The notes: generated from the sequence alone by a model not told the origin. A stretch of DNA of 64,000 bases from an uncultured Chthonomonadaceae bacterium (GCA_963835065.1 CAWIEK010000002.1:64001-128000); one strand, 5' to 3'; numbered from the stretch's first letter, positions 3,746 through 35,792 are shown. Translations and numbers: made by a program.

Positions 3746-3777
3746 GTCGTTTAGCATTTAACGCGGCGGTGTTTAGC

Positions 3778-13291: not shown

Positions 13292-13320
13292 TTGACAGTT
13301 GGCGCGGAATTTCTTACAAT
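13292..13320 (+). promoter_or_regulatory. sigma70-type promoter
   Basis: TTGACA-17-TACAAT upstream of the amidase. Confidence 0.6.
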
Positions 13321-13436
13321 GCAAGGAGAAAATGTTGAAGAAGAAATGTTGAACGATGAGGGCAAGCAGGGTAAAGCGCGAACGATGCAGAAATTAGGCA
13401 GGAGCCGAACAGGAATGACGAAGAAAGGAGCGGAAT

Positions 13437-14204
13437 GTGAGCGGTGAAGGAACGCGCAAGCGAATACGTGGCGGGCGCAGGCGGCGCAGGCGGCTGTTAT
13501 TGCTGCTGTCGGGCGCAAGTTGTATGCTGTTGACCGTTTTAGGCATCGGCAGGCGGCTTCTGCACCGCAAGCCGGAAACGCCGCCGACACTGCCGCCGGT
13601 TGTGGTCGCGCCCCTCGTGCCGCTTGGCCCGCCCGGCATTGTGATCCATCATTCCGAGTCGCCCGCCGTGTATCACGGTATAGCCATGAACGCCGCCCGC
13701 TTGGAAGACATTCACCACCAGGAACACCCGGACTGGAAAACGGAGTACGAGGGCAAAACCTACTACATCGGCTACCACTATGTTATTTTGCCGGATGGCA
13801 CGGTGGAAACCGGACGGCCTGAAGGCTGCATCGGCTCCCATGCCCGCTCGCATAACGATTGGATCGGCATTTGTCTGATTGGAGGCTTTCAAACCAACAA
13901 TCACTGGTTCCCGGAAACGCCGACAAAAGCGCAGATGAAAGCCCTCGTCGCGTTATGCGAGCATCTCATGTCGAAGTACCACATTCCGCCCGATCTGGTG
14001 AAGCGACACCGCGACATCAATGATACATGGTGTCCCGGCGACCGCTTTCCTTACAACAAACTGCTGGCGCAACTGCAAACGTATGCCGCTACGCACCCCG
14101 AAACCAAAGCCATCCCCGGCAGAATCGTCTCGCTGGAACATCCGCCGCCCCCCGGAAGGAAGAAGAAGGACAAGGCTGCGGACGACAAACATAAAATGAT
14201 TTAG
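13437..14204 (+). CDS. N-acetylmuramoyl-L-alanine amidase (Amidase_2), membrane anchored
   Basis: IVIHHS, IGYHYVI..DG.VE.GR, GSHA, IGICLIG, HRD...T.CPG zinc motifs; N-terminal TM. Confidence 0.9.
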   Translation: MSGEGTRKRIRGGRRRRRRLLLLLSGASCMLLTVLGIGRRLLHRKPETPPTLPPVVVAPLVPLGPPGIVIHHSESPAVYHGIAMNAARLEDIHHQEHPDWKTEYEGKTYYIGYHYVILPDGTVETGRPEGCIGSHARSHNDWIGICLIGGFQTNNHWFPETPTKAQMKALVALCEHLMSKYHIPPDLVKRHRDINDTWCPGDRFPYNKLLAQLQTYAATHPETKAIPGRIVSLEHPPPPGRKKKDKAADDKHKMI

Positions 14205-14256
14205 CCCTGCGCGGTTATGGCTGTCAATCCAAAATGCGCCTGCCGCGCAATAGGCG

Positions 14257-14871
14257 TTATCGCGCTCCGTGCTGCAGGAGATAATTGACAATCTCAAAGT
14301 GGTGTTGGGCATCCGCGATGCGCAGCAGGGACGTATTCTCGCCATCTGCGGCGTTGACCTGCGCGCCGTGTTCGACCAGCATCTGCACGTTTTCCAGCGA
14401 ACCGCTCCGGCAGGCCAGCATCAGCGCGGTTTCTCCCTTGTGGTTGCGCAGGTTGACATTGGCGTGATGCTCCACCAGCGCGCGGACAATGGCGACGAAA
14501 TTGCCGCTGTTACCACGTGAAGAATCGTTGGTGAAGCGGGCGGCAAACATCAGGGGCGTATCGCCGTCCGGCGTGGCAAGGTCGGGGTTCGCGCCATAGC
14601 GCAGCAGCGTTTGCGTGGTCTGCACCGAACCGACAGCCGACGCCGTACATAAGGCCGGAAACCCTTGATCGCCACGGACGTTGGGATCGCAGCCCATTAC
14701 CAGCGCTTCCTCCACTTTCGGCGAGTTGGCGCAGTCAATCCACATCCACACGTCTCGATTATGCCACTGATGGTACAGCCAGAAACAGCATTGCAGCAGG
14801 ATGAGCGCGCAAACGCCGCCCGCGCAGGCCAGCGCTTGGCGTATAGGAGCCGATAATCGTCGCAGGCGCAT
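14257..14871 (-). CDS. Ankyrin repeat protein
   Basis: GDTPLMFAA, GETALMLAC, LVEHGAQVN repeats. Confidence 0.9.
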   Translation of the reverse strand: MRLRRLSAPIRQALACAGGVCALILLQCCFWLYHQWHNRDVWMWIDCANSPKVEEALVMGCDPNVRGDQGFPALCTASAVGSVQTTQTLLRYGANPDLATPDGDTPLMFAARFTNDSSRGNSGNFVAIVRALVEHHANVNLRNHKGETALMLACRSGSLENVQMLVEHGAQVNAADGENTSLLRIADAQHHFEIVNYLLQHGAR

Positions 14872-14989
14872 ACAGTGTCTCCTTAATTTAGGGTTTTAGG
14901 GTTTTAGGGTTCTATGTTTTTAGGGTAAGGTCACAGTGGTTATTTGTTCAACCCTAACCACCTGGAACCCTAAAACCCTAAAACCCTAT

Positions 14990-15847
14990 TCACGAGCTTC
15001 GCAACCGGGACAGAAACTGTTCAAAATTGTGCTGCGGTTCGTAGCCCAATTCGGCGGCTTTGCGGATGTCGTAGCGCGTGTGGATATGCGGAACATGCAG
15101 GCCGTGCTGCGCCAGCAGTTCCGTCGCGCCCGGATAATAGCGCTCGATTACGCTGTCCGGGTCGCTTGCCAGTTCCGGCCAATCTTCGTCCACGAATGGC
15201 TTGGCGCTTTGAATCAAGAAAGTCTCGCACTTGAACTCTTCCGCCACGATTGCGCCCAACGCCAGTTCATTGGCCTGCGCCACGTCCTCGCGATCCAGCC
15301 AGTTGTCCAGACGCCCCATGCCGGCCACTTTCCAGTCGGCGGGCATGAACATGCCGTAGCGCAAAATGGCGATGCGGAATCCATGCGCGCGGGCGTAATA
15401 GCGGCACATCTCTTCACTCAAATGCTTCGTCATCGGGTAGAGATGGGTGGGAATGGAGGGCACGTTTTCATCCATCACCCGAATCCCGCGCATTCCCTCT
15501 CCATAAACCTGATCGGTGGAAGAATACACCAGATTAGGAATCTGGTGCAGCAGCATGGCGCGCAGAATGTTATGGGTTCCGGTAACATTGACGCTGTAAT
15601 AGTCGTCCACGTTGCGCGAATCCGCCGCTGCGGAATGAAACGCGACCGCATGGATAATGGCGTCACAGCCCTGCATCGCATGAGTGACGGCAGCCGCGTC
15701 CCGAATGTCGGCCTGGATGCTGACGCTGCCTTCCGGCGCGAACATCGGCTCCAGATCGAACAACACCAACTGATGCCCCGAACCCAATAAGCGAGGGACT
15801 AACGCAAGAGGAAAGTTGCCCCGCGCCCCCGTAATCAGTATCTTCAT
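14990..15847 (-). CDS. NAD-dependent epimerase/dehydratase family protein
   Basis: MKILITGARG, NVTGTHN, YPMTK (YxxxK). Confidence 0.88.
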   Translation of the reverse strand: MKILITGARGNFPLALVPRLLGSGHQLVLFDLEPMFAPEGSVSIQADIRDAAAVTHAMQGCDAIIHAVAFHSAAADSRNVDDYYSVNVTGTHNILRAMLLHQIPNLVYSSTDQVYGEGMRGIRVMDENVPSIPTHLYPMTKHLSEEMCRYYARAHGFRIAILRYGMFMPADWKVAGMGRLDNWLDREDVAQANELALGAIVAEEFKCETFLIQSAKPFVDEDWPELASDPDSVIERYYPGATELLAQHGLHVPHIHTRYDIRKAAELGYEPQHNFEQFLSRLRSS

Positions 15848-16143
15848 TCTATAGTAGTTCCTTCCAATCACCCAACACCCAACACCTGACACCCAACACC
15901 AATGGATTGCTACTTGCATTGTAGTACGTATCCCGTTCCCGGTCAAGCGTTTTGCGAAAATAGTCTTTGTTCGGACGCGACAAAGGGAGCAGAACCCTTG
16001 ATACAAGGAAGAAGCGGGAACTAAGCCCTGATATATTACGTTGCAATGATGTATCGAGCCGATTTGCAGTATGTGGCTTAATACCTCTTTACTTCCGTAT
16101 CGCAAACGCAAGGAACTTTTTCCACAGAACAGGATAGCCAAAG

Positions 16144-17643
16144 ATGGAACCAAAACGCGCATTGGTGACGGGAGCGACAGGGTATGTCGGCGGACGGCTT
16201 GTTCCCCTGCTGCTGCAAAAAGGGGTTCGGGTTCGCTGCATGGCGCGGCAGCCGCGCCAATTGGAAGGCCGTTTTGACGGCAACCTTGCCGCGCCGGGAC
16301 AACTGGAAATCGCCGCCGGGGATGTGCTGAACCCGGAAGGTTTGGAGGCCGCGCTTCAGGGTGTGGATACGGCTTACTATCTCATCCACGCGATGGGCAG
16401 CAGCGCAAAAGGGTTTGAAGAACGCGACAAGATTGGCGCGATGAATTTTGCTAACGCGGCGGCAAAGGCGGGTGTTCGCCAAATTATTTATCTCGGCGGC
16501 TTGGGCAAGCGCGAGGAAGACACTTCCGCGCATTTGCACAGCCGGCATGAAGTAGGCGATGTGCTGCGCGCCGGCAAGGTGGCTGTGACGGAACTGCGGG
16601 CGGCGGTAATCGTCGGGGCAGGCAGCGCGTCGTTCGAGATGCTGCGCAGCCTGACCGAAAAGTTGCCGTTCATGCTGTGTCCGAAGTGGGTCAACACGCG
16701 CACACAGCCGATTTTTATCAACGACGCGCTTGCCTATCTCGTGGGCGCAATGGAGTGCGAGGCGTGTGGCGGGCGCATACTCGACATTGGTGGCCCGGAT
16801 GTGATGACGTACAAGGAAATGATGCTTGCGTATGCCGAAGTACGCCATCTAAAACGGACAATCATAGATGTGCCCGTACTGACGCCGCACCTGTCCGCCT
16901 ACTGGGTCAACTTGATGACGACCATCCCCGCGTCCATTGCGTTCCCCCTGATTGAAGGCTTGCGCTCCGAAACCATCGTTGAAAACGACGAGGCGCAACG
17001 GTTGCTTCCGCTTCCGCTCACGCCGTTCCGCGAAGCCGTTGCCCGCGCGCTCCGCGATACGAGTGACGCCAAAGTACCGACTCGCTGGTCGGGAGCGACG
17101 CGGGGACAAGTGCCGCGCATGCTGGACGCCACGCCGCCGGACAAAACCTTGATTCGCAACCAACAGATCGTCGAGACACGAGCAAGCGCGGAAATGCTGC
17201 ACCGAGCGACAGCGCGTATCGGCGGCAAAGTGGGCTGGTATTATGCGGATTTCCTGTGGGAGATTCGCGGGGCCATGGATCGGCTGATTGGCGGCGCGGG
17301 AGTGCGCCGGGGCAGGCGCGACCCGGAGCAAGTGGCAATCGGGGATGCCATAGATTTTTGGCGCGTGGAGGATTATACGCCCACGCGCCTGCTGCTGCGC
17401 GCGGAAATGATCGTGCCGGGGCGGGCATGGCTGGAGTTCCAAATCAAAGAGTTAGGCAACGGCACACGCCAGTTGGCGCAGACAGCCTATTACTATCCCA
17501 ACGGTATTTTGGGTTACGCTTACTGGTATGCCTGCCTGCCGTTCCATGTTTTTGTGTTTGGCGGCATGGCGCGCAACATTGTCCAATGGGCTGAGAAAGC
17601 GGAGCAAATCGAAAATCAAGCGTATGCCAATAACGCGGCGTGA
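16144..17643 (+). CDS. YbjT-like atypical SDR oxidoreductase with C-terminal DUF2867
   Basis: LVTGATGYVGGRL, HL.SR.EV, IGG..GWY..FLW..RG..DRL.GG.G, GDAIDFWRV, AEM..PG.AWLEF. Confidence 0.9.
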   Translation: MEPKRALVTGATGYVGGRLVPLLLQKGVRVRCMARQPRQLEGRFDGNLAAPGQLEIAAGDVLNPEGLEAALQGVDTAYYLIHAMGSSAKGFEERDKIGAMNFANAAAKAGVRQIIYLGGLGKREEDTSAHLHSRHEVGDVLRAGKVAVTELRAAVIVGAGSASFEMLRSLTEKLPFMLCPKWVNTRTQPIFINDALAYLVGAMECEACGGRILDIGGPDVMTYKEMMLAYAEVRHLKRTIIDVPVLTPHLSAYWVNLMTTIPASIAFPLIEGLRSETIVENDEAQRLLPLPLTPFREAVARALRDTSDAKVPTRWSGATRGQVPRMLDATPPDKTLIRNQQIVETRASAEMLHRATARIGGKVGWYYADFLWEIRGAMDRLIGGAGVRRGRRDPEQVAIGDAIDFWRVEDYTPTRLLLRAEMIVPGRAWLEFQIKELGNGTRQLAQTAYYYPNGILGYAYWYACLPFHVFVFGGMARNIVQWAEKAEQIENQAYANNAA

Positions 17644-17846
17644 AACGCGAAGCAGAAGTCAAAGAGCAGAATAAATCCCATTCTTTAACTTCTGTTATCT
17701 GCGGCGGAAGTTAAATTCGCCCGACACGAATCCCTTGAAATAGCGTATGCTATAGCGGTACAAGTTGTAGAAGCAATTCTGAAGAAAAGATTGCGTGGCA
17801 TGGCCTGACGAACCACTATTAGTAATGCTATTTACAGGGTAATTTC

Positions 17847-18782
17847 GTGGACAACAAAATTGTGAACTCCGATGAATCCTTTCCGCCGCGTTCCCGTTCG
17901 CTTTCGGGGCTGGACGCGCTTAATTCCGTTTCTCACGCCGCCGCATTGGACGCGCTGGCGCAGGCCGTTCGTGGCGAAGATGCAGATATAGATGTGGGAT
18001 TGGCGGCCCTGCTCATTGCTGTAAACCACTATCCCCATCTGGACGTGGCGGCGTATATGCGGAAATTGGACGCATTGGCGCAGGGCGCGCGCAGCCGCAT
18101 CGGCAGAACCCGCCGCGCCGAAAAAATCGTGGAAGCCCTGAACGCTTATTTGTTTGAAGAGCGGCAATTTCAGGGCAACGCCGAAGACTATTACAACCCC
18201 GCCAACAGTTTTCTCAACGAGGTTCTGGATACGCGCCGGGGATTGCCCATTACCCTGAGCATTGTCTACATGGCCGTCGCGCAGCGTCTGGAACTGCCCG
18301 TCAGCGGCGTCGGCCTGCCCCTGCATTTCATCGTGCGCTACGATCCTCCTGCTTCCCGCCTCGGAAACACGCCGCCCATTCTCATAGACCCCTTTTACGG
18401 CGGAGAAATTCTGACGCCTGAACAATGCCGGGAGCGCATCGAGCGCATCATGGGCCGCGCCATCGGCTTCGACCCCGCTTATTTGCAGCCCACGCCCAAC
18501 CGCCTGATCCTGTACCGCCTGCTCAACAATTTGAAACAAGTGTATGTGCAGCGCGAGGAGCCGGCAAACGCCGGGCGCGTCGTGGAGCAAATGCTGGTGA
18601 TTATGCCGGACAGCGTGGAAGATATTCGTGACCGGGGCTTGCTGTTTTTGCAGGAACGCGCCTTTTCTCGTGCCATCAACTGGCTGACCCGCTATCTGGA
18701 ACGCATGCCCAAAGCGGAAGACGCCGGCCATATCCAGCGCGCCATTCAGCAGGCGTATATTTTGCGGGCGCAGTTGAATTAA
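17847..18782 (+). CDS. SirB1 / transglutaminase-like protein with TPR
   Basis: FQGN..DYY.P.NSFLN.VL..R.GLPITLS, G.GLP.HF, IDPF..G, RDRGLL. Confidence 0.88.
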   Translation: MDNKIVNSDESFPPRSRSLSGLDALNSVSHAAALDALAQAVRGEDADIDVGLAALLIAVNHYPHLDVAAYMRKLDALAQGARSRIGRTRRAEKIVEALNAYLFEERQFQGNAEDYYNPANSFLNEVLDTRRGLPITLSIVYMAVAQRLELPVSGVGLPLHFIVRYDPPASRLGNTPPILIDPFYGGEILTPEQCRERIERIMGRAIGFDPAYLQPTPNRLILYRLLNNLKQVYVQREEPANAGRVVEQMLVIMPDSVEDIRDRGLLFLQERAFSRAINWLTRYLERMPKAEDAGHIQRAIQQAYILRAQLN

Positions 18783-18790
18783 GGTGTCCC

Positions 18791-22382
<3,592 letters not shown>

Positions 22383-22389
22383 ACGCTCT

Positions 22390-24172
22390 ATGAAAATCCT
22401 GATTGCTGAAGATGATCCTATTCCGCGCCGACTGCTGCAAGCCTCGCTGACGAAAAGCGGCTACGAGGTTGTGGTGGCGCGGGACGGGAATGAGGCGTGG
22501 GAGGCGCTGCAGGCCGAAGACGCGCCCAAATTGGCGATATTGGACTGGCTGATGCCCGGAATGGATGGCGTGGACGTGTGTCGTCGCGTTCGGCAGCGGG
22601 CTAACGCGCCTTACGTTTACCTGCTCCTGCTGACTTCCAAAGACAGCAAGGAGGATGTTGTCCGGGGCATGGACGCGGGCGCGGACGATTATCTTACCAA
22701 GCCGTTCGACCCGCACGAATTGCAGGTGCGCCTTCATGCCGGACAGCGTATTCTGGAATTGGAAGCCGCCCTGCTTCGCTCTTATGAAGAATTGGAGCGG
22801 GCGCATCGGCGCGAAGGCGAAACCGGGGCCAAAATCCAGCAGACGCTGCTGCTGGAACCGCCGCCGCCCCACTATGGCGGAATGGAGGTCGCCGCGCTGA
22901 CCATTCCCTCGCAGCAGATAGACGGCGATTTTTACGACTTTTTTACGCACCCGAACCCGTATCTGGATGTGGTTGTCGGTGACGTGATGGGCAAGGGAAT
23001 CGCCGCCGCCCTGCTCGGCGCAGCCATCAAAAGCCAATTTCTGCGCGCCCTGAGCCACCTCTTAATTGCCGAACACGGACGCCTGCCCGACCCGGAAGTG
23101 ATTGTCGCTGCCGTGCATCAAGCCGTCACGGGGCAGTTCATCGGGCTGGAATTTTTTGCCACGCTGTGTTACGCCCGCTTCGATCCCAAACAGCAACAGG
23201 TCACGTTTGTAGACTGCGGCCACACCAAAACCATCCGCTTTCGGCCCGCAACGGGCGTATGCGACACGCTGGAAGGCGACAACATGCCCCTCGGCGTCAG
23301 TGAAAAGGAAGTGTACCGGCAGGCGACAGTCGCGTGTCAGGAAAGCGACGTGTTTTGCTTTTACTCGGACGGCGTGACGGAAGCCCACAACCCTTCAGGA
23401 GAACAGTTCGGCGCAGACAGGCTGACAGCCATCATACAGGAAAGCGGACACGACAGCGCCCAGGAACTCATTGACGCTATTCACCGTGCCGTCGTCACGT
23501 TCTCGCAAAAAGCGAAGTTTGCCGATGACCTGACGTGCGTAGTGGTGAAAATGGGCGGGCAAGGCGTTTCTTGTGTCATGGACGCCGAAAATGCTACCCT
23601 TGCAATAGACGCAAAAAACGACTGCCGCTGCAATGGACGCGGAAAGCGCGGCTCCTGCGATAGTCCGGAAAGAAACTGGCCCTCTACAGGGAGGAGGCGA
23701 GACTGCTCCTGCCACATTGGAAATCACTAGCGATCTGGCGCAACTGGCAGCCGTTCGCGCGTTCGTTCGTGACTTTTGTGTTCGCAGTTCGCGTGGCAAC
23801 CCCGACGAAGACGGCATTGCGCAACTGGAAATCGCCGTCAACGAGGCGTTGAGCAACGTCATCCGCCACGCCTACGAGGGACAAGCCGACCGGCACATTC
23901 AGGTAGTGGCGTCCTTCTCCGAGGATGGCGTTGCCATTGAACTGCACCATCATGGCCTGCCCTTCAGCCCCAACAACGCCCCGCCGCCAAGTTTCGACGG
24001 CTCCCGCGACGGCGGCTTCGGCGTTTACATGATTGCGCAAAGCGTGGATGCCGTCCACTACGCTCAGGATGCGAACGGGCGGAACACGATTCGGTTGGTT
24101 AAGCAGATGAAATACGTGAGGTGTTGGGTGTTCAGGTGTTCGGGTGTTCGGAAGATGCCTCGTTCAACGTAA
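22390..24172 (+). CDS. REC + PP2C (RsbU/SpoIIE) phosphatase, probably fused to an RsbW-like kinase; one apparent +1 frameshift
   Basis: KILIAEDD, GDFYD, GDVMGKG, YSDGVTEA, DDLT; second frame (23633-24172) has EALSNVIRHAY and GGFGVYMI; extra A in the A6 run 23613-23618. Confidence 0.8.
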
Positions 24173-24233
24173 GCTGCATTGTCCCGAATACCCGAACACC
24201 CGAACACCCGAACACCCACCCAGGAGAATTACG

Positions 24234-24572
24234 ATGGAATTGGCGAAGGAGCAGGAAGGCGACGTTGTGATTGTTACGCCGCAGGGGGAGTTTCTGGACG
24301 CGAGCAATGCCGAGGCGTTCAAGCGGGACAGCGCGGCTTTGCTGGAAGGCAAGGCGCGGGTCGTGTTCGACATGAGTCGGCTGCAATTCGTGGACAGCGC
24401 GGGATTGGGCGCATTGCTGTCGTGTATGCGAAAACTAAGCGGCGCGGGCGGCGACTTGAAATTAGTTGGCCTTTCCAAACCGGTACGCGCCACCTTTGAA
24501 GTATCGCGGATGCACCGCATTTTCGACATCTACGCGACAAAAGAAGAAGCAGTCAAGGCGTTTGAAGCGTAG
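24234..24572 (+). CDS. STAS anti-sigma factor antagonist (RsbV-like)
   Basis: AGGAG SD; FDMSRLQFVDSAGLGALL with the conserved phospho-Ser. Confidence 0.92.
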   Translation: MELAKEQEGDVVIVTPQGEFLDASNAEAFKRDSAALLEGKARVVFDMSRLQFVDSAGLGALLSCMRKLSGAGGDLKLVGLSKPVRATFEVSRMHRIFDIYATKEEAVKAFEA

Positions 24573-24654
24573 CGAGTCGCAATAACGTTTACATCTTTGG
24601 GCGGGCTTCATTGACATTAATCAAAGTTTTCCCGTCTACCAACGAACAAACAGC

Positions 24655-24987
24655 TTATGATAAAACGAGGAAGGTTGCGGCGGCATCTGCCTCGAACTCC
24701 TTGACAGCCTCAAGATTGTCCCGCAAAACTCTTTCGATGGCATGAGTGGAACAATTACCAAGCCTTACCCAAATTACCTTTGGCGGGTAGCCTCGAACCA
24801 AGCTGCGCTGATGGAAATCAGAGTCTTTGGAAACAATCGTAAAGTTGTTTCGCTTGGCATAATCCCATATTATTGTGTCGCTCGCTTCTTTGAGACCGGC
24901 ATCACCTACATGCTGAGAGGTAGGGTAAACATCTGCCAGAGCGCCCACAAGCCGGTAGGATAGGTTCTGGTCAAATAAAAGTTTCAT
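24655..24987 (-). CDS. DUF5615 PIN-like toxin (VapC45-like)
   Basis: MKLLFDQNLS, IVSKDSDF, PPKVIWVRLGNCST. Confidence 0.88.
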   Translation of the reverse strand: MKLLFDQNLSYRLVGALADVYPTSQHVGDAGLKEASDTIIWDYAKRNNFTIVSKDSDFHQRSLVRGYPPKVIWVRLGNCSTHAIERVLRDNLEAVKEFEADAAATFLVLS

Positions 24988-25208
24988 ACCGGTACGCCGA
25001 GCAGCTTACGCTCACGATCAGCCGCGAAGGCAAGACACGCTTTGAGGTCTTCGTGGGTGAGGTCAGGAAAGTCTTCCAATATTTCTTCTTCCGTCATATC
25101 AGAAGCCATGTAATCTAAAACGTCGTAGACAGTGATGCGCAAACCGCGAATACAGGGCTTGCCGCCGCGCTTGTCTGGTTCGATGGTGATGTAGTTCTGG
25201 TAGTTCAT
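24984..25208 (-). CDS. DUF433 antitoxin
   Basis: ITIEPDKRGGKPCIRGLRITVYDVL, EEILEDFPDLT.ED..ACLAFAA; ATGA overlap with the toxin. Confidence 0.92.
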   Translation of the reverse strand: MNYQNYITIEPDKRGGKPCIRGLRITVYDVLDYMASDMTEEEILEDFPDLTHEDLKACLAFAADRERKLLGVPV

Positions 25209-25336
25209 AACACACCTTCTACTCTCTTGAAGAATACGGCATATCCCTCTATGTACGTCTGCTACAAACACACTCTCTTCTGGAAGAAGGAAGCGCCATG
25301 CAAACAGTTAAGGGAACGTTCCGTATATTGCTTGTC

Positions 25337-25365
25337 ATTATAGCGGAGAACTTACGCGGTGTCAA
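25337..25365 (-). promoter_or_regulatory. Consensus sigma70 promoter for the TA operon
   Basis: TTGACA-17-TATAAT on the minus strand. Confidence 0.75.
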
Positions 25366-25567
25366 CCACTTATGAAGACGGGAATGAGTTGAACAGAACT
25401 GATTTTATCCTTCTTCAATGTTCAAGCATTGCGCATCAAATGTAGTTTGTAGGCCGCACAAGATTTTAGCGGACAGGAACGCGAACAATTTAGCCTTCGC
25501 CCTGCAAGGGAGAAGGTAGCCCCCGACGGATGAGGGTAGAGGCTTTCAATACCACAGGGAGAAACGT

Positions 25568-26851
25568 ATGACGACACCATCTCGACGAGATTTTCTCAAA
25601 ACGACAACCACAACGGGCGCGGCGGCGGCACTGCTGGCGACGGGCAATTATGCGTATCCGCAGGGCGCGAAGAAACTGAGCGTCGGGCTTATCGGGTGCG
25701 GCGGGCGCGGCACGGGCGCGGCGGCGCAGGCGCTCAATGCGGACCCGGACGCGATTTTAACCGCAATGGGCGATGTGGCGCAGTCGCAGATTGACAACAG
25801 CCTGAGCGCGTTGAAGGGCGAAGCGTCGGTTGCCGGTCGGGTACAGGTGACGCCCGAACACAGCTTTGTCGGGCTGGACAGCTACAAGAAAGTGCTGGAC
25901 AGCGGCATTGACGTGGTGCTGATGGCCTCGCCGCCCGGTTTCCGCCCGCAGCATATTATCGCTTCGGTGGACGCGGGCAAGCATGTGTTCGCGGAAAAGC
26001 CGATGGGCACGGATGCCATCAATGTTCATGCCGCGCTGGAAGCGGCGAAACGGGCGCAGGCGAAAAATCTCGCGTTCGTGTCCGGTTTCTGCTGGCGGTA
26101 CAATCCGCCGCACCGCGCCTTTTACAAGCGCATCCACGAGGGCGCGATAGGGCAGGTGCGCTCGGTTTACGCCACGTACCTGACCGGGCCGGTGAAGCCG
26201 ATGCCGCCCGCCAACACGCGCCCGGCAGGCATGAGCGACGTGGAATGGCAAATCCGCAACTGGTACAACTTCGTGTGGCTGTCAGGCGACGGGCTGGTGG
26301 AGCAGGCGTGTCACAGCATTGACAAGATTTTATGGGCGATGAACGATGTTCCGCCGCTGCGCTGCGTGGGAACGGGCGGGCGCGTTTTGCCCAATAACGA
26401 GGGCAACATCTACGACCACATAGACGTGTTTTACGAGTGGGCGGACGGCAGGCGGGCAACGATGGCGCAGCGCCAAATTCCCTCCCCCTACAACGACAAC
26501 TCGGACTACATCACGGGTTCAAAGGGCGAGGGCATCATCAAGGGCGGCAGCGTGGAAACGCATGGCGATACGGCGTGGAAGTACGAGGGGCCGCAAAAGA
26601 ACATGTATCAGGTGGAGCATGACGAACTGTTCGCGTCCATCCGCAAAAACATGCCGCTCAACGACGGCGAGCGCATGGCGCGGAGTACGCTGATGGGCTT
26701 GATGGGGCGCATGGCGGCGTATACGGGCGAAGAGATCACATGGGAGCAGATGCTGAAATCGCAGGAGCGTCTGGTTCCCGTCAAACTGGAATGGAACATG
26801 AGCCTGCCGATTGCGCCCCTCGCCATTCCCGGCAAAAACACGTTCGTGTAA
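25568..26851 (+). CDS. Tat-exported Gfo/Idh/MocA oxidoreductase
   Basis: SRRDFLK, VGLIGCGGRGTGA, HVFAEKP, EQACHSID. Confidence 0.92.
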   Translation: MTTPSRRDFLKTTTTTGAAAALLATGNYAYPQGAKKLSVGLIGCGGRGTGAAAQALNADPDAILTAMGDVAQSQIDNSLSALKGEASVAGRVQVTPEHSFVGLDSYKKVLDSGIDVVLMASPPGFRPQHIIASVDAGKHVFAEKPMGTDAINVHAALEAAKRAQAKNLAFVSGFCWRYNPPHRAFYKRIHEGAIGQVRSVYATYLTGPVKPMPPANTRPAGMSDVEWQIRNWYNFVWLSGDGLVEQACHSIDKILWAMNDVPPLRCVGTGGRVLPNNEGNIYDHIDVFYEWADGRRATMAQRQIPSPYNDNSDYITGSKGEGIIKGGSVETHGDTAWKYEGPQKNMYQVEHDELFASIRKNMPLNDGERMARSTLMGLMGRMAAYTGEEITWEQMLKSQERLVPVKLEWNMSLPIAPLAIPGKNTFV

Positions 26852-27254: not shown

Positions 27255-27437
27255 TTTTGCCTCAGCAGCAAAGACAAGGGTAAGCCAGTGTCGGCGCTAA
27301 CCTCCAAAACGCTCAAAATAGGGTAGGTTAGCGCCGGAAAAATAATCTCAACATGCTTGACAACACACGAAAAATACGCTATACTGGCTCTATGTTTCCG
27401 AGGTTAGCGCCGATGAGAAGGAAACATGAGATAGAGG
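27255..27437 (+). promoter_or_regulatory. CRISPR leader with promoter
   Basis: TTGACA(27357-27362)-17-TATACT(27380-27385); 12-bp motif AGGTTAGCGCCG at 27325 and 27401 and inverted at 27292. Confidence 0.8.
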
Positions 27438-27705
27438 GTTGCAACCCGACCTCTTCCCCGTAGGGGATTGAAACGGATAGTTTTGCAAGTAGGCATCTTC
27501 TGTCACGGCGTCATAGTTGCAACCCGACCTCTTCCCCGTAGGGGATTGAAACGTATGTACCGCGAACGACATTCATTGCGCCAAGGTATCGGTTGCAACC
27601 CGACCTATTCCCCGTAGGGGATTGAAACGCTTTGTTACTGAAGCAAGTGAGGACCATCAACCCCACCAGTTGCAACCCGGCCTCTTCCCCGTAGGGGATT
27701 GAAAC
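27438..27705 (+). CRISPR. CRISPR array: 4 x 37-nt repeats GTTGCAACCCGACCTCTTCCCCGTAGGGGATTGAAAC, 3 spacers (41, 39, 40 nt)
   Basis: Repeats start at 27438, 27516, 27592, 27669; ATTGAAAC 3' handle; CCCC-GTA-GGGG hairpin; single mismatches only in the two leader-distal repeats. Confidence 0.97.
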
Positions 27706-27707
27706 GG

Positions 27708-27746
27708 AAAAGGTGGATAGAGCATGATAGGCTCTATCCACCTTTT
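27708..27746 (+). terminator. Intrinsic terminator after the array
   Basis: aaaaggtggatagagc-loop-gctctatccacctttt followed by a T-rich tail. Confidence 0.85.
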
Positions 27747-27996: not shown

Positions 27997-28932
27997 CTAC
28001 AAGGGTTTTGTCACCAACACGGGGCTTGTGCGCAGGGAGACAAGCGTACTCTGCTGGCGGAGCGCCTCCGGCAACAAGGCCGCGCCGTTCTCGTCATGCA
28101 GGCGAACGCTCTGACGCAGATACTCAATCTTTCTTTCTTCCAGAACCGTTGCCAAAATCATCCCGCCAGACATGGTGGCGGTTGCGCCTGTAATATCGGC
28201 CATGATCTCATCTACTTCCACGTTGGCCTCCAGAGTGGCCTTGCGATAGACTTCGTTGACGACTTCTACCATACATTCTATCTGGTCGTACTCTTTTACA
28301 GGAACGGGATGACACGTTACGGTCTGCCCCGTAAACTTCTTGATGATGCTTTCTGCAACGCCAAACTCACCTGCCGAACCTTTGTCATTCGGCCCTTTTC
28401 CGTCTTCCGTGCAAATAACCCAGCAATGCTTTAAGGTGGCGGCATGATGCTGTACCGCCACTAGCAACGGCCCCCAATTGGATTTCAGCAGTTCCGCGCG
28501 AAAATCTTCCTGTTCAATAGCTGCTTTGACGGTAGCCACGTCCTTGAAGCGGCTCTCGCCCCGCCGGTCACTGTAGCGACTCAGCATCACAATCAGCGCT
28601 TGGCAGGGCTTTGGCGGCTCAAATGTGAACGAATGTTCCACCGAAGTCCTACGATAATTACGCGCCATAAGCCATACGGCGATTGCAAACAGCAGCAACG
28701 GCAGCGCAAAATCCGCCCCCATTCCGGCCAGCATCTCGCCCGGCTTATCAATGGTAAGCAAGCCGATTCGGTAAAGCAACAACCTTGCAATCCCGCTCAT
28801 CAGGCCGTACAAAGCGTTCGTAAATACGGCGAACATCGCTGCAGAATAGAAAAATGTCACTATAGCTTTGCCGGTTCGATTGCGGCTGAAGTCGAACATC
28901 CGGCTGAACGCTTCGAGAAGTTTACGGTTCAT
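27997..28932 (-). CDS. TM + CARF domain protein (Cam1-like type III CRISPR membrane effector)
   Basis: Two N-terminal hydrophobic helices; LIVMLS strand, NWGP..VAVQHH...L..CW.ICT, IMADITGATATMSGG (CARF DITGGxxxMS motif); in an operon with csx15 and cas6. Confidence 0.75.
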   Translation of the reverse strand: MNRKLLEAFSRMFDFSRNRTGKAIVTFFYSAAMFAVFTNALYGLMSGIARLLLYRIGLLTIDKPGEMLAGMGADFALPLLLFAIAVWLMARNYRRTSVEHSFTFEPPKPCQALIVMLSRYSDRRGESRFKDVATVKAAIEQEDFRAELLKSNWGPLLVAVQHHAATLKHCWVICTEDGKGPNDKGSAGEFGVAESIIKKFTGQTVTCHPVPVKEYDQIECMVEVVNEVYRKATLEANVEVDEIMADITGATATMSGGMILATVLEERKIEYLRQSVRLHDENGAALLPEALRQQSTLVSLRTSPVLVTKPL

Positions 28933-28974: not shown

Positions 28975-29355
28975 TCAGCGTTGATCGCGCGCCCCGTCCC
29001 GAACGGTTTGTAAATTGATGATTTCCGCCACTTCAAAGCGGGGCGGCGTGGTGTCGGGCACGGGGCGCAGGCGGAGGATGGCGGGGAAATAGCCGCAGCG
29101 CCCGTGCAGTTCCGCCAGCAGCAGCGCGGCAATCGCGTTGTAACTCGGCAGGCTGATGAGCAGGGGCAGCGTCTGCCACTCGTCCGCCGACAGGCCCGCC
29201 GCGCTCAAAAGCTGCTGCGCCTGCCCCGCGTAAGGCAATCCCGGATCGAACTGCGTTTTCACGTCAATCACGCGCTCTATCGCCTGCCCGCTCTGCTGTT
29301 CCACGCCCGCGCGCTGTTCCGCCGTCAGCGGATGCGCAAAATTCACCACAATCAT
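28975..29355 (-). CDS. csx15: CRISPR-associated protein Csx15-like
   Basis: MIVVNFAHPLT..Q, EWQTLPLL, LLAELHGRCGYFPAILRLRP....PP.FEVAEIINLQ..R..AR; GGAGG SD. Confidence 0.8.
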   Translation of the reverse strand: MIVVNFAHPLTAEQRAGVEQQSGQAIERVIDVKTQFDPGLPYAGQAQQLLSAAGLSADEWQTLPLLISLPSYNAIAALLLAELHGRCGYFPAILRLRPVPDTTPPRFEVAEIINLQTVRDGARDQR

Positions 29356-29530
29356 GCCGCCTCCCATTCCCCTTCCAACAAAACATTCCCACCCCTGCCC
29401 CCTCACCTCCAATCCTCCCGCCCCACCACCAACGCCACTTCCAAAAGTTACAGCAACCAGGCATCATCCTGAAACCTGAAACAGGCATCATCCTACTGAA
29501 ACCTGAAACCTGAAACCTGAAACCTGCCCC

Positions 29531-30363
29531 TTATCCCCTGACCCGCGTTTGCCCCATGCCGATACCCGTTTTGCGCCCGGTTCCGGCATAAAAGGCGAAT
29601 TCGGCCAGCACGGTGGCGAGGTGGCGCTCCTCGGCGGAAAGGTCGCCAAGCCCAAACGCGCACTCGCCCACAAACCCGGTCTGCGCCACGCCCTTGAACC
29701 GCATGGCGCGGGTTTGCAGATGGTACGGCCCCAACAAAATACGTTCCGCGCAGGCAAGCAGGGCATCCTCGGCGATCTGCGGCACATCGGCGGCGGCGTG
29801 GGCGTTCCAGGCGCGCGCCCACGACTGCCACAGCAGGCGCGGGTCGGGCCACAAAATGTCGCGGTCATGGGAACGGAACGCGGTGGGCGTGACAAAGCGC
29901 AGCGTGAGCGTGTCGGCAGGCGGCGTCCGGTTCCACAGGTGGGCAAAGGACGCGCTGTTGGCGTCCGGGTGGCCGTCGGGCGTGGTGAGTACGTCGTGGA
30001 GGGCGTACTGCGCCCTGCCCAACCGCAAGGGCGCGGGCGGCTCCTGCTTCAGCAGCCCATGTACAAATTGCGGAAACAGCCCCTCGTCGAGCAGGGTGAT
30101 GCGCAGGGCGCAGTCGGGATTTTCGATTTTCGATTTTCGATTTTCGATTGGGGATGTGGGTGTTGGGGCTTGGCGGCGGGGTCGGGCGGCAGGAGATAGA
30201 CGGTGAAGGGCTTGCGGGCGTTGGCGGCGTGGAGGCGTTCGGCAAGGTCGGCATCCCCGCGCGCCAGCAGTTCGTAAAAGGCGGCGTGAACCACATCTCC
30301 GGCGTGAACCGGCAGGGGCGCGTTGTTAAGTCGGCGGAGGGTCAGCAGAAAAGCGTCGGGCAT
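29531..30363 (-). CDS. cas6: Cas6 crRNA-processing endoribonuclease, frameshifted across a (GAAAATC)4 tract
   Basis: N-part ...HAAFY.LL...D..LA..LH....KPFTV; C-part LRITLL, LRFVTPTAF, GFVGEC.F, AFYAGTGRKTGIGMGQT Gly-rich loop; the two parts are in different frames. Confidence 0.88.
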
Positions 30364-30479: not shown

Positions 30480-30600
30480 GCCAGGGATTGAAAATCCCTG
30501 TCTGGACAAAACAAGCGTCTTGCACACGCGACCATCAATGCTAGAATCCGCGTCTGCAAGACGCTTGCACTTTCCTGCCGGGTATTTTCAATACCCGGCA
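30480..30600. repeat. REPIN-like family A copy 2
   Basis: cagggattgaaaatccctg ... aagcgtcttgca / tgcaagacgctt ... gccgggtattttcaatacccggc. Confidence 0.8.
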
Positions 30601-30652
30601 CAGGCAATGCCTTAATTTTGCAACGCACCCTATTATGCACACAACAATCGGA

Positions 30653-33371
30653 CTAAAACCGGAAGGTTTTCGCAGCCATTGTGGTGTCCTGATACCAGCC
30701 GGACGCGGGCGACGCGATCATGTTTGACGGGGCGGGGCGCGAAGGTTTTGTCGGGGAGGGCAGGCAGGCCATACGAGCGGTCAATCACGCGCAGAGTCAG
30801 GGGCGCAGTGGATTTTACGCGCAGCGTGAGCGTCAGGCCGGCATCGGGCGCGTTGAAGTACAGCAGGCTCCAGGCGTGGTTCAGGCCGATGCTGCCGCCG
30901 ATGGGCTTGCCTTCTATGGTCGCGTCCAATACCGGCGTATTCGCGTCTGCCGCAATTTCCAGCAGGGGGGCATGACGGGGCGAGGCCACGCGCAGCCGCA
31001 GTTCCCGAACGCCGTTTTCCACGCGCTCACTCTCCAAAACGGCGGTCGGCGCGGCAAGCGGCGCAAGGGGCGCGGGCGTATGGAGAAACGTTTCCGGGCT
31101 GACCGGCAGAACATCCGGCAATGCGCCGCGCAGAGGATGCTCACCCAAAAACTGCTTTGTCCAGTCGTCCGGCTTGCGGTCATTGCTCGCCCACACCGCC
31201 GTATGTGTGTCCGCGTTCAGCGCGTAGAAAATGCTGTTGGAGCGCGGGCGCGTTTCGCTCGGCTGCAAGGCTTCCGCGCCCACCCACAGCAGAACCGCGC
31301 CGATTGCCATCAGCAGCAAAGGCAACGCCTGCGGATGCAGGGGCGCAACGCGAACCATAACCCGCATCTGCGGATACAGCAAGGCGATTGTCAGCGCGGT
31401 CAATGCGCCAACAATCGTCAGCGAACCGATGGACAGGGTCGCAAACAGTAGGCACAGCACAGGCAAGACCAGCAGAACGGCAGGCGCAAGTCCAAGCATC
31501 AGACACGTCAGCGCGATTTGCGCAGGGTTCATTCCCTCCTGCCATTTTCGGGGCGCGAACAGCAGCCCTTGCGCCACCAACACGCCAAGCAGGGGCCACA
31601 CAAACAGATAGCTTCCGCCCGGCAGCAGCAAGGCGGTCAGCCACGCCAGCAGCAGCCACCACACCATTGCGCCCATCGCAACCGCGTCACGCGCCAACAG
31701 GAACGGCATTTGCAGCCCAGGCGCACCCTGCGCTTCCCCCTCCGTTTTCGATACATCCGCTTCTGATTTCTCTTTGTCTTGTAACTTCTCTTTTTCGCGT
31801 TTACGAGGCCGCGTTTGCGTTTCCGCCGTTTCCTCTGCGTTGGTCCCGTTCCCCGCTGTCGTATCATGCTTACGCGCCGAACGCTTCCAATCCAGCAGCA
31901 ATATCACGCTTCCCATCGTCAGCAAAATGACGCCCGCTAATGTGGTATTGTCCAGATACAGCGTCATGCGCGGCGTCACGGCTCCCGATGTGAGCCAGTA
32001 CGTCAACCCGGCCAGCATCAGCACAACGGCGACAACCGCCCCACCCACGCGCAGCAGTCCTGACAGCAGCGCGATACCGGTCTGCCCATACCTCCGCCCA
32101 TTCCCCCGCCAAAACAATCGCAGAACCACAACGGTAAGCAGCGTTGCCAGCATCGCCAGAGGCACAGCCCACGTTTCCGGGTACGCGCACAGCCAGGTTC
32201 GCGTGATGTTGAAATAAATGGCGTCCGGCTGCCGCGCTTCCGTCAGGGACACGTTACCGAACTGCCGCGCCAGACTCAGCATGTTGTCGCCCTGATGCTG
32301 CAAACTGCGCAAATCCAGACGCTCCACACTGTCCAGGCTGGTGTGGTAATGCGCGGCGCGGTCAATAAAGGCGAAGTTCAGCCCAATCATGCCCCCATCC
32401 CGAAATTCCGTAAAATCCGTATCATTGGGCAGTTTCTTGTAGACGGCATAAAACAGGGAGGAGCCGAGCGGTTGTATCGCCCCCTGCCCGAACTGCCGCG
32501 CCAGCCACCCATTCCCCGCGCTGGTCTCGAACATCAGCGACGGCCCCGACGTGCCCCGCGCCTCGAAGTTCAGGACCAGAGTAGGAAATGATGAATGATG
32601 AGTGATGAGTGATGAGTGGGAATTCCATTCATCATTCATCATTCCGCGTTCAGCATTTCCTGCTGTTCCCTGTTCCCTGTTCCCTGTTCCCTGTCCTCCT
32701 TCTACAAACGCCCGCGCTCCAAGCAAGCCGGTTTCTTCGCCGTCGGTTAAAAGAATAACCAGGTCGTTGCGCAGGCGGAAAGGGTACCTCACCCCGGACG
32801 TCCATTTATGGACACCTTCTCTGGCCGCTTCTTCGCCGCCAGGGGAGGGGCTTTGCGAGTTAGCCGGGTTTGTAATGTCGCTGCGGGATTGGAGGGCGCG
32901 AAGGGTTTCCAGCAAAGCCGCTGCGCTTGCGCCATCATCGCTTGCGCCCGGCCCGGTGGAAACCGAATCGTAATGCGCGGCAAGCAGCACGGTTCCGGTG
33001 GGGTTAGTGCCGGGTATGCGCGCCCAGATGTTGTGGACGGTGGCGGCGCGATACGGGCGGGATGTTCGCGCGCCGACAACCGGCGTGGTTTGCAGTTGGG
33101 GCGATACTCCCAATTGCCGAAGCTGCGCCAGGAGATAGTCACGAACGCGGGCATGTTCGGATGCGCCCTGTGGATGGGGAGATTTAGCGATTTCCCGAAG
33201 CGACATGAGGGCGCGAGAAGCGGAAAATGCTTCGGCAGGCGCGTTCGTGGAACGAGGCGAGGGCGGCGTAATGGAGCGGAGCGCGACAAGCGCCAGCAGC
33301 GCCAGCCACAACAGCATCAGGCAGGCTTGCCACTGCGCCAAACGCCGATTGTGAGTAGGATCAACGGGCAT
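30653..33371 (-). CDS. M28 family metallopeptidase with a multi-TM domain; two repeat-derived in-frame insertions
   Basis: AHYDS, GPGASDD, TDGEE.GLLGA, NFEARG.SGP, PNDTDF, HYHT..D. Removing one G at 30729-30732 gives a natural end RPSNMIASPASGWYQDTTMAAKTFRF* at 30653; the ORF track ends at 30633. Confidence 0.88.
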
Positions 33372-33590: not shown

Positions 33591-33985
33591 TCACTGCAAG
33601 TGCCCCTTCCCCACAACGCAAGCAGCAACCCTCCCGCAAAAACAATCCAGAAAAAAGACAGTAAAAAGAGCAAAAAAACGCCAAAACAAACGAACCCTTT
33701 GTCCAACGCAGCCGTCTAAAAAGTAGAATAACGTCTACTGTTTAGATGTTAGACACAGAAGGCGGAACGTTCGCAGTTCCTATCAACTCTCAACTCTCAA
33801 CTCTCAACTAAGAAGGGAGGTGCCAGTTCTATGTTCCGCTTCTCCCATCCGCCCTGACGCTGCGGAGGCCACGACGCCTCTCTCCTACAATCTGACACAA
33901 CGAGACATCGGGCTGGAAGCGCTGTATTGCCAAGATTTCGACGATGCCTCTACATACTCTTTTTCTACAGATACTTTTCTCTGCC

Positions 33986-34117
33986 TGCCGTTTGCCCGGC
34001 GTTTTCCTGCCGGGTGTTTTCAACCCTCGGAACGCTCTTGTCGGTATCCGGCCTCCCATTTCACAGCAAGCGTTTTCAATACCCGGAACGCCTGCCGGGG
34101 ATTGAAAAGCCCCGGTA
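33986..34117. repeat. REPIN-like family A, degenerate copy
   Basis: ttcctgccgggtgttttcaaccctcgg, ttttcaatacccgg and gccggggattgaaaagccccgg half-sites. Confidence 0.65.
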
Positions 34118-34136
34118 CAGGCTGTTCAGGAAAGCA

Positions 34137-34904
34137 TTATGGCCTGCGTTCGGCGGACGCGCGGCGATACTCGCGCATTACGGTTTCCACGTCACCGTCC
34201 ATGCAAATATGGCTGGTGTCCAGCCACAAGATGCGCTCCGCAACCCGCTCCACAGCGGCAAGATCGTGCGACACGAACACAATGGTTTTGCCCTGCGCCT
34301 GCAATTCCGCAATCAGGCGGTAGCATTTGTGCTGAAACGCCTCGTCGCCCACCGCCAGCACTTCATCCACGAGCAGCAAATCCGGGTCGGTATGCACGGC
34401 AATAGAAAAGCCCAGGCGCAGTTTCGCTCCATCGTTCCAGTTGCGGACAATGGTATCCGCCTTTTTTTCCAGTTCCGCGAACGCGATAATCTGTTCCCGG
34501 CGTTCCTGCACCTGCTGCGCGGTCATGCCGAGCATGGCTCCGTAAAAGGCGATGTTGTCGTAACCGTCCAGTTCGGGATGCAGTCCCGCGCCCAATTCCA
34601 GCAGGGGCGCGATACGCGGACGCTCACCGGACTGACTGAACATTTCCAGGGTTCCCGACGTTTGCCGGTATACCCGCGCCAGCAGGCCGAGCAGCGTAGA
34701 CTTGCCCGACCCGTTGCGCCCGATAACCGCCAGCGTCTGCCCGTGCGGGACGCGAAAACTGATGTTTTCCAGCGCGGTAAACGGCTCAATCCGGGTGCGC
34801 CGCGACCATTCCAGCACAGCGCGTTTGATAGAGTGCGCCTCATGCCGCACGCGAAACACTTTGGTCAGATTTTCCGCGATAATGGCGTCAGGACAGGAAT
34901 TCAA
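34137..34904 (-). CDS. wzt: Polysaccharide ABC exporter ATP-binding subunit (Wzt/TagH-like)
   Basis: GRNGSGKSTLL, PLLELGAG.HPEL.G..N, LLVDEVLAVGD.AFQ.KC, VSHD. Confidence 0.9.
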   Translation of the reverse strand: MNSCPDAIIAENLTKVFRVRHEAHSIKRAVLEWSRRTRIEPFTALENISFRVPHGQTLAVIGRNGSGKSTLLGLLARVYRQTSGTLEMFSQSGERPRIAPLLELGAGLHPELDGYDNIAFYGAMLGMTAQQVQERREQIIAFAELEKKADTIVRNWNDGAKLRLGFSIAVHTDPDLLLVDEVLAVGDEAFQHKCYRLIAELQAQGKTIVFVSHDLAAVERVAERILWLDTSHICMDGDVETVMREYRRASAERRP

Positions 34905-34907
34905 ACT

Positions 34908-35792
34908 TTAACTCCGTTCCACAAACTGCCACTTGCGCCGGTTGAAATACCAGTAGCAGAACCAGGCGAACGCAATCGTAATCAGGAACGCGCCCCCGAA
35001 CGCCGGCCAGTCCATCGGAATCGGCGGCAGTTCCCGGCCATTGGGCAGGTACATTTTATTGAATTTGGAGGGCGACAGCGGTTCCAGAATACACTTGCGA
35101 TAAGCGTCAATGATCGCCGTGATGGGATTTAACCTGTATACGGTCAGCAGCCAGGGATGGCGGCGCATCACGCCAAAATCGGCGGCAAGATCGGCGGGAT
35201 ACAAAATCGGCAGCAGAAACACGATCAGGTTCAGCACGGTGGTCACGATAAACTTTACATCATCGAAAAACACGTTCAGGGCGGACAGCAAAAGCGCGAA
35301 CCCCGCTGTCAGCAAAAACAGCATCAGGGTAATCAGAGGGAAATACAGCATGGACGGCAGCAGGGGAATGCCGACGCCGGAAAAACGGCGCACAACCACA
35401 AACACGACAAAAAACACCGCCCAGCTAATGAACAAATGCACCGTGTTGCTCAACACCGTCGCCAGGGGAATCACTTCGCGGGGCATGTACACTTTTTTGA
35501 TAATGCCGTAGTTGGCGAGCAGGCATTGACTGGCATCCAGCAGCGCGGTGGAAAAAAAGGTCCAGGGGATCAGGCCGCATAGCAGATAGGGCGCGTAATT
35601 CGGGTAATCAATACGCAGCGCTACTTTGAACAAGAACATGTACACGAACACTTGCAGCAGGGGCGGAATTATAGACCACAAAAGCCCTAATGCAGAGTTT
35701 TTGTAGCGTACCTTTAATTCGCGCCGCACGAACATGTGCAGCAAATAGCGGTAGCGCCACAGTTCCAAAAGGTTCTCGCGTGTTGTTGCCAT
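34908..35792 (-). CDS. wzm: Polysaccharide ABC exporter permease (Wzm/TagG-like)
   Basis: LWRYRYLL..FV.RELKVRYK.SALG.LW, KVYMPRE..P, PILYP, LNPIT..I..YR. Confidence 0.9.
   Translation of the reverse strand: MATTRENLLELWRYRYLLHMFVRRELKVRYKNSALGLLWSIIPPLLQVFVYMFLFKVALRIDYPNYAPYLLCGLIPWTFFSTALLDASQCLLANYGIIKKVYMPREVIPLATVLSNTVHLFISWAVFFVVFVVVRRFSGVGIPLLPSMLYFPLITLMLFLLTAGFALLLSALNVFFDDVKFIVTTVLNLIVFLLPILYPADLAADFGVMRRHPWLLTVYRLNPITAIIDAYRKCILEPLSPSKFNKMYLPNGRELPPIPMDWPAFGGAFLITIAFAWFCYWYFNRRKWQFVERS

Follow-up and report, generated by a model that had tools for sequence, protein, structure and literature searches.

A reading-frame break at a heptanucleotide tract in two cas6 paralogues of an uncultured Chthonomonadaceae bacterium

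Introduction

A cas6 gene in the genome of an uncultured Chthonomonadaceae bacterium is divided between two reading frames, and the division falls at a short run of seven-nucleotide repeats. What does this arrangement represent: a switch that turns crRNA maturation, and with it a neighbouring effector, on and off, as the original prediction for this locus had proposed; a frameshift that has left the gene inactive; a site at which translating ribosomes change frame; or an error of assembly? The genome (G000; 8.0 Mb in 71 contigs) was analysed starting from one stretch of 64,000 nt on contig C2 (C2:64001-128000), referred to here as the window, and coordinates given without a contig name are positions within it.

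Results and discussion

The two reading frames of cas6

The gene spans 29531-30363 on the minus strand, and its length of 833 nt is 2 mod 3. The N-terminal and C-terminal domains of Cas6 are both present, with no single uninterrupted reading frame running through them. The ATG ORF (30049-30363, minus strand, 104 aa) reads ...ARKPFTVYLLPPDPAAKPQHPHPQSKIENRKSKIPTAP... and, through the tract, ...KPFTVYLLPPDPAAKPQHPHPQSKIENRKSKIPTAP..., ending at the stop at 30049. It is Cas6-like only in its first ~60-75 residues, the remainder being out-of-frame read-through up to that stop. The frame one base back (-1) reads ...PIENRKSKIENPDCALRITLLDEGLF... and ...IENRKSKIENPDCALRITLLDEGLF... and is open as far as the stop at 29531, and the C-terminal part of the gene in this frame (29531-30133, minus strand) contains the end of Cas6_N followed by PF10040 with its glycine-rich GTGRKTGIGMGQ loop. 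Against Pfam, positions 1-60 of PF19308 (CRISPR_Cas6_N) match the ATG frame with 26.1 bits (cut-off 23.9), positions 84-146 of the same model match the -1 frame with 29.1 bits, and PF10040 matches the -1 frame over positions 1-89 of 89 (E = 2e-19); the glycine-rich loop of the C-terminal domain, GTGRKTG(I/M)GMGQ, can be aligned to that of homologues. Against the NCBIfam equivalog TIGR01877 the C-terminal piece on its own reaches 43.7 bits, below the cut-off of 58.65, and the best PADLOC matches for the pieces are Cas6d models. ORFs and translations agree with the original prediction that the N-terminal frame ends at 30049 and that the C-terminal half lies in another frame. Separate translation of the C-terminal part was considered and rejected: the first ATG, GTG or TTG in the -1 frame is at 30028, past the conserved ALRITLLDEGLF segment, and the first possible start is placed differently in the paralogue on contig C49 described below.

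The repeat is a perfect (GAAAATC)4.6 tract of 32 nt (30118-30149, coding strand minus; TRF period 7, 100% matches), located in a loop of the protein between the KPFT and LRITLL strands. Its unit reads GAAAATC on the coding strand and GATTTTC on the plus strand, and in every frame it encodes the heptapeptide repeat SKIENRK. The 28-nt four-unit pattern occurs once in the 64-kb window and in none of 100 dinucleotide-preserving shuffles. Both the four perfect units in the cas6 loop and the lack of stop codons in all three frames had been described beforehand, and the TRF call and direct inspection of the sequence bear out these descriptions. Changing the unit number in silico with a script opened the frame at 2, 5 or 8 units (273, 280 and 287 codons, including the stop) and led to an early stop at 3, 4, 6 or 7 units, in accord with the earlier expectation that 2 or 5 units would join the halves into ~273-280 codons.

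Other short repeats lie nearby. On the coding strand, three degenerate CCCNNNN heptads (30150-30170, minus strand) directly precede the tract; they encode the PQHPHP segment and, from their sequence, may be what is left of another, decayed tract, of the AACACCC class. Just past the cas6 stop begins a further heptamer tract, (GTTTCAG)4.4 (29496-29526, minus strand), which is found in both paralogues (at 3755-3785 of locus L013, the stretch C49:676000-683000, in the other copy). The sister species carries only ~two imperfect units at this site (L006, near 1500), which suggests that the (GTTTCAG) tract may have grown in place from a short seed. Two palindromes, ccagggattgaaaatccctg and gccgggtattttcaatacccggc, occupy the intergenic region upstream of cas6 at 30481-30500 and 30577-30599, and GGATTGAAAATCC-type hairpins seem to recur near 34000, judged by ORF translations.

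The same break in a paralogue

A paralogous cas6 on contig C49 at 679 kb (76% identity over a 200-residue C-terminal query) carries a tract at the same site, made up of AATCCAA, three copies of AATCGAA and AATC. Each of the two copies is 833 nt long, with a 110-nt loop and the same 2-mod-3 (-1) offset. The ATG frames of both align with the intact loop of a sister-species protein (P0006) up to the HPxP motif before the tract, and the -1 frames of both align with it from ALRITLL onward, just past the tract, confining the frame break to the tract and ~10 nt on either side of it in both copies. A MAFFT DNA alignment placed a deletion of one base behind KPF in C49, which was rejected on the ground that the C49 ATG frame matches the sister protein well beyond that point, on to HPSP.

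The cas6 orthologue in the sister species (G002) is without the tract and its loop is in frame as ...SPHPLPATRHHLPATGHALRITLL; this copy has other defects further along, and it groups with C49 (101 informative sites versus 53 and 51 for the alternatives). Intact distant relatives (P0003-P0005, 264-274 aa) have no heptamer tract in the loop, which measures 17-24 residues in these and 17-28 residues across intact Cas6 relatives. On these comparisons, either the two paralogues would have acquired the tract once the sister species had split off, whether by parallel growth, copying or site preference, or else the sister species would have lost it. Two further histories were examined and set aside. 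Recent gene conversion of the flanks finds no support in the eight codons after the tract, which differ between the copies at two synonymous sites, no fewer than elsewhere. The case for a clean 32-nt insertion, drawn from the fact that its removal restores the frame, was judged weak: of 63 single tracts that are in frame, 31 have a length not divisible by three, so that the extent of a perfect repeat does not give the size of the insertion.

Both halves of the gene are conserved as protein. By the method of Nei and Gojobori (own script), dN/dS between the C2 and C49 copies is 0.23 for the N-terminal part (dS 0.46) and 0.18 for the C-terminal part (dS 0.96), compared with 1.0-2.7 in the wrong frames. 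Between C49 and the sister species it is 0.14-0.16 for the N-terminal part and part 1 of the C-terminal half (dS 0.39-0.46). The two halves have thus been under purifying selection (dN/dS ~0.2), with no sign of relaxation on the C49 branch, and further stops or indels are absent from both halves in C2 and C49 alike. Purifying selection without a second lesion indicates either that the frameshift is recent or that the gene still functions with it.

One way in which the gene could function as written is recoding, as in other programmed frameshifts, with the four-unit allele working through ribosomes that slip by -1 on an A_AAA of the tract (zero frame CGA AAA TCG). Both paralogues call for a shift of exactly -1, with identical phasing of the tract against the zero frame, and both halves are under purifying selection; 3 nt past the tract there is also a small hairpin (GACUGCGC...GCGCAUC) of 7 bp, kept in both copies with one G-C to G-U change. 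This hairpin, however, overlaps codons of the conserved DCALRI segment, so that its conservation has another cause, and the regional fold is no better than that of shuffled sequences (z = -0.92; 32 of 200 shuffles fold as well). The X XXY YYZ slippery heptamer is absent, the only candidate being a four-A run. The sister orthologue and the more distant homologues are plainly in frame, and the same tract lies in frame in other genes, where slippage would do harm. We regard recoding as unlikely and give it very little credence.

A genome-wide family of heptamer tracts

The cas6 tract is one of a large family. Perfect tracts of at least three copies number 1,329 in G000 for period 7, compared with 31, 32 and 123 for periods 5, 6 and 8, and the heptamers fall into 68 unit classes, with 48 tracts of the GAAAATC unit. 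Most are 3.3-4.7 units long, their lengths clustering at 23-27 and 30-33 nt with just 31 of the 1,329 reaching 35 nt or more; in the GAAAATC class the most frequent length is the 32 nt found in cas6 (11 of 48). Among 26 related genomes searched, (GAAAATC)3 was found only in G000 and the sister species G002, and a member of the same genus (G001) has 5 heptamer tracts in 400 kb where ~66 would be expected at the density of G000. Short tandem runs of 7 nt, an excess of period 7 and a lineage-restricted distribution together identify the family as a dispersed heptanucleotide simple sequence repeat (SSR). The tracts frequently form inverted pairs ~100 nt apart.

To place the tracts relative to genes, we applied a codon-usage score of our own, trained on 1,387 long ORFs, to the 240-nt flanks of 1,008 tract clusters and of 3,000 random positions. 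One flank was coding for 455 of the clusters (1,245 of the random positions), neither for 304 (879), and both in the same frame for 167 (826). Both flanks were coding on the same strand in different frames for 73 clusters (32 random positions) and on opposite strands for 7 (10); 2 clusters (8 random positions) lay at a contig edge. At least 167 clusters are thus intragenic and in frame, contributing 7-residue peptide repeats to proteins such as GlmS, the gene for which (10032-12014, 660 aa) is open despite four or five tracts (e.g. 10558-10680 and 11524-11593). The gene for an M28 peptidase (30633-33371, 912 aa), 2.4 kb from the cas6 tract, is likewise open with three tracts (e.g. 32589-32694).

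When only clusters consisting of a single tract with coding flanks on both sides are counted, 63 of 73 are in frame. The two cas6 copies are among the ten that are not; four more resemble gene junctions, with the upstream ORF stopping before the tract, and the last four resemble breaks within one gene, two of them near contig ends. For clusters that hold a GAAAATC tract and have both flanks coding on one strand, the in-frame count is 5 of 11. Tracts within genes are common in this genome and normally in frame, and cas6 is an exception.

Assembly error as a possible source of the break

Could the gene truly be in frame, one base or one unit having been lost, or two bases gained, in or beside the tract during assembly of both copies? 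The original prediction had cautioned that this assembly has many indels, and it does. Where the ends of two contigs overlap (C43:66163-74692 and C69:34600-43141), 8,546 nt show 98.56% agreement and 20 gaps. For 5.7 kb of this overlap 11 indels were listed, mostly single bases in ordinary sequence, and a large tRNA-synthetase-like gene within the overlap is broken in one copy and open over 1,016 codons in the other. A rate of frame breakage was obtained from 200 long ORFs taken from 400 kb of the same-genus genome G001, 98 of which have an orthologue of at least 60% identity in G000: these gave 10 frame switches in 143,739 aligned nucleotides, nine in ordinary sequence and one at a heptamer cluster, or about one apparent break for every 14 kb of conserved coding sequence. 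Some 300 kb of the assembly is duplicated at 91-99.7% (50 alignments of at least 1.5 kb), frequently where contigs end and with numerous one-base indels; the source of these stretches is either the binning of two strains into one genome or overlaps that were poorly polished.

At this rate the chance of a break in one given 110-nt loop is ~0.8%, and in both cas6 loops ~6e-5 by our own arithmetic. Random error is an unlikely source of the cas6 break because two paralogues break alike at the same tract. An error specific to the sequence context would be another matter, since the near-identical local sequence of the two tracts would expose both copies to it. Four other single-tract genes also show frame breaks, two of them near contig ends. 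Such an error at both tracts is possible, and the tracts that lie in frame elsewhere lend it no support: because tracts inside genes are normally in frame (63 of 73 single-tract cases, and 5 of 11 for GAAAATC clusters), the assembler evidently copes with heptamer tracts, including those in the open genes near cas6. Neither locus, moreover, is close to the end of its contig (C2, 94 kb of 239 kb; C49, 679 kb of 793 kb). A search of metagenome read runs returned one soil run, with 0.04 of the sampled words, and contigs that matched the tract only, with unlike flanks. Weighing these points, we consider an assembly artefact in both copies quite improbable.

The CRISPR neighbourhood and a third cas6

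Downstream of cas6 in the window are csx15 (28975-29412, minus strand), which matches the full NCBIfam model NF040560 (E = 5e-48), and a gene for a 311-aa protein with TM and CARF regions (27997-28932, minus strand; PADLOC PDLC01053, E = 2.2e-29, with a weak match to TIGR02710). The latter is likely, from these family matches, to be a membrane effector gated by cyclic oligoadenylate, and its TM+CARF match makes a membrane effector of the Cam1 kind a fair guess for the effector that had been postulated here. A small array of four repeats follows (27437-27713, plus strand; repeat GTTGCAACCCGACCTCTTCCCCGTAGGGGATTGAAAC). No Cas10-complex genes were found among 12 further ORFs scanned in the window (11 in 10032-26851 and one at 33927-35132). 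Cas10-like matches occur on other contigs (C48, C63 and C44). The Csm1/Cas10-like match at C63:63760-64387 is divided between adjacent open frames, one of 315 codons and one of 218, through either another frameshift or another assembly indel.

The second locus (L013, and C49:683933-685901) comprises the split cas6, csx15, a shorter TM+CARF ORF and an array of 26 identical repeats. It also includes genes that we take, from sequence motifs, to be cas2, a reverse transcriptase (YADD) and cas1. Because of these three genes and the 26 identical repeats, the C49 locus looks like a live system. Its csx15 is apparently frameshifted near the 3' end. The 8-nt AUUGAAAC was taken as the tag of mature crRNAs from the C2 and C49 arrays.

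A third cas6, on C63, is intact and open (282 aa) and adjoins an array with the repeat GTTGCAACGCCCGTTTGCCCCTCACGGGGATTGAAAC. This repeat and the window repeat share GTTGCAAC, a CCCC/GGGG stem and the ATTGAAAC end, a likeness from which the C63 Cas6 could process repeats of the window type. With an intact cas6 beside a related repeat, crRNA processing may not depend on the C2 and C49 copies. This weakens the original proposal that switching the window cas6 would gate crRNA maturation, given that loss of the gene need not stop it.

Unit number and the case for a switch

A phase switch would operate by gain or loss of units through slipped-strand events, with cas6 OFF at four units and ON at five or two; the resulting crRNA supply would in turn toggle a type III response driving the neighbouring TM+CARF effector. 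Several points speak for such a scheme. The unit is not a multiple of three and lies within the frame, so that unit number sets the frame of cas6 as in a contingency locus, with opening at 2, 5 or 8 units; the break maps to the tract in both paralogues; both halves are under purifying selection with no second lesion; the C49 locus, with its 26 perfect repeats, looks live; and neuO provides a known phase switch that works through a coding heptanucleotide tract. Contingency loci, however, have repeats confined to the gene that switches or to a few such genes, and here the tract is one of 1,329, 48 of them with its own unit; at least 167 clusters sit within genes such as glmS and keep the frame, and frequent slippage there would be costly. 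At 4.6 units it is also far shorter than known coding heptamer switches, which use much longer tracts.

Variation in unit number bears directly on this question. Twenty tracts with the GAAAATC unit were taken from the sister species, and 14 of them have syntenic flanks in G000. Six of the 14 sites share the unit (G002/G000 lengths of 31/32, 37/34, 33/33, 33/33, 32/32 and 30/34 nt), and in all six the unit count has been kept across a synonymous divergence of ~0.4, with differences of at most 4 nt and never a whole unit. Seven sites have a different or degenerate heptamer at the equivalent position, and one has no tract in the stretch inspected. At seven orthologous sites (L051, L053, L055, L056, L060, L063 and L067) the position and ~4-5 copies are kept and the unit differs, with GATTTTC in the sister species facing GTTGATA, TGAAGGA or GATTGCC in G000; it looks as if heptamer tracts may be rewritten as wholes between the two species. 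The prediction that unit number varies found no support in this comparison with a related genome, in which the count was kept at all six same-unit sites.

Within G000 the picture is less uniform for the unit in question. Near-identical duplicated stretches (n = 65) provide 82 pairs of tracts of other units, of which 71 are equal in length, 5 differ by one edge base and 6 could not be placed; whole-unit changes number 0 of 82. The GAAAATC class provides four pairs: two are equal, one differs by exactly one unit, and one is complex, its difference scored as -7 by one method and -10 by another. One clean and one complex unit change in four pairs, against none in 82, would favour a switch at this unit, and GAAAATC may slip more than other units do.

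Searches for other alleles of cas6 were negative. Two exact-pattern scans of metagenome contigs, one for the 3' flank of the tract and one for a conserved C-terminal stretch, returned no stretches; P0006 was the only longer protein to match the N-terminal ORF; a protein search with the C-terminal part found as close relatives only the genome's own two pieces and P0006; and a scan of genome contigs for cas6 yielded four distant loci and no ON-length allele. Both copies of cas6 are thus OFF at the modal length of the family, no ON allele was found, and the 39 nt that an ON allele needs is a rare length, given the 31 of 1,329 tracts that reach 35 nt. The intact third cas6 may, moreover, render a switch ineffective. 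A one-unit gain could possibly revert the frame, as it could for any short repeat, and would not amount to an evolved switch. That the frame of cas6 hinges on the tract holds good, the break mapping there in two copies; that the tract is a dedicated switch is possible but lacks support, the tract belonging to a genome-wide family that is often in frame inside other genes. We judge toggling of cas6 by slipped-strand unit changes to be improbable.

A proposed tract-linked frameshift and its meaning

The reading that we tentatively favour, with confidence a little short of even, is a real, tract-linked frameshift that leaves both cas6 copies inactive as written. A GAAAATC tract, one member of the genome-wide family, occupies a variable loop of cas6 and, in the sequence as assembled, shifts the last three quarters of the gene into the -1 frame in C2 and C49 alike. 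In this reading it would have arisen in both paralogues, or been copied into them, once the sister species had diverged. The length of 32 nt would be set by the mutational process that holds the family at ~4.5 units, not by the needs of cas6, and the loss could be tolerated because the intact Cas6 on C63 could process repeats of the window type. The broader alternative, that both paralogues work across the frameshift, by slippage between four and five units or by a -1 ribosomal slip, with a stochastic crRNA supply as the outcome, is one that we doubt without dismissing it.

What follows depends on which of these is correct. If both copies are read across the frameshift, a type III TM+CARF module and an RT-Cas1 adaptation locus would be gated at crRNA maturation by an SSR, and continued use of the two genes would mean an SSR-gated or recoded CRISPR maturation step; among the matches listed in a literature search (12 of 42), none concerned an SSR-switched cas gene. 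If the frameshift is real and simply inactivating, a genome-wide heptamer process can knock out defence genes, and the case would show why frameshifts borne by repeats in draft long-read assemblies call for paralogue and genome-wide controls, not for judgement on a single case. The heptamer family poses a mechanistic question of its own, with ~4.5 units, 68 unit types and the wholesale replacement of units at sister-species sites.

Comparison with known systems

Cas6 proteins of the PF19308 + PF10040 kind are the closest point of reference for the gene, which shares with them both domains, the glycine-rich loop and an array alongside with a repeat ending in ATTGAAAC; unlike its intact relatives, it is interrupted where the loop joins the KPFT and LRITLL strands, through an offset of -1. 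The 311-aa neighbour resembles the TM+CARF effectors of type III CRISPR systems, Cam1 among them (PMC10808066), in matching TM+CARF models, a likeness at family level only. A point of difference is that no Cas10-complex genes were seen among the surrounding ORFs scanned.

The gene neuO of Escherichia coli K1, carried by the CUS-3 prophage, is described as phase-variable through a heptanucleotide tract in its 5' coding region. The cas6 tract is like it in having a 7-nt unit within an ORF and in being in frame at every third unit number. In neuO the tracts run to tens of units, vary from strain to strain and are particular to that gene, whereas the tract in cas6, with 4.6 units, is part of a genome-wide family and had no length variant among the sequences searched.

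Dispersed heptamers offer the nearer parallel. Known examples include the STRR of Calothrix and Nostoc, GGGAATC in Xanthomonas, GGGGA(T/C)T in Nostoc and TAACTGA in Beggiatoaceae, and the Xanthomonas repeats show a strong bias to about four units and are reported to be depleted within coding sequence (PMC4692102, PMC4679880). Like these dispersed SSRs, the repeats of G000 are short 7-base tandem runs, present in hundreds of copies and specific to a lineage; unlike them, they comprise 68 unit classes, not one or a few. In contrast to the Xanthomonas repeats as reported there, many of the G000 tracts lie within coding regions, where they are in frame, and one breaks a cas gene.
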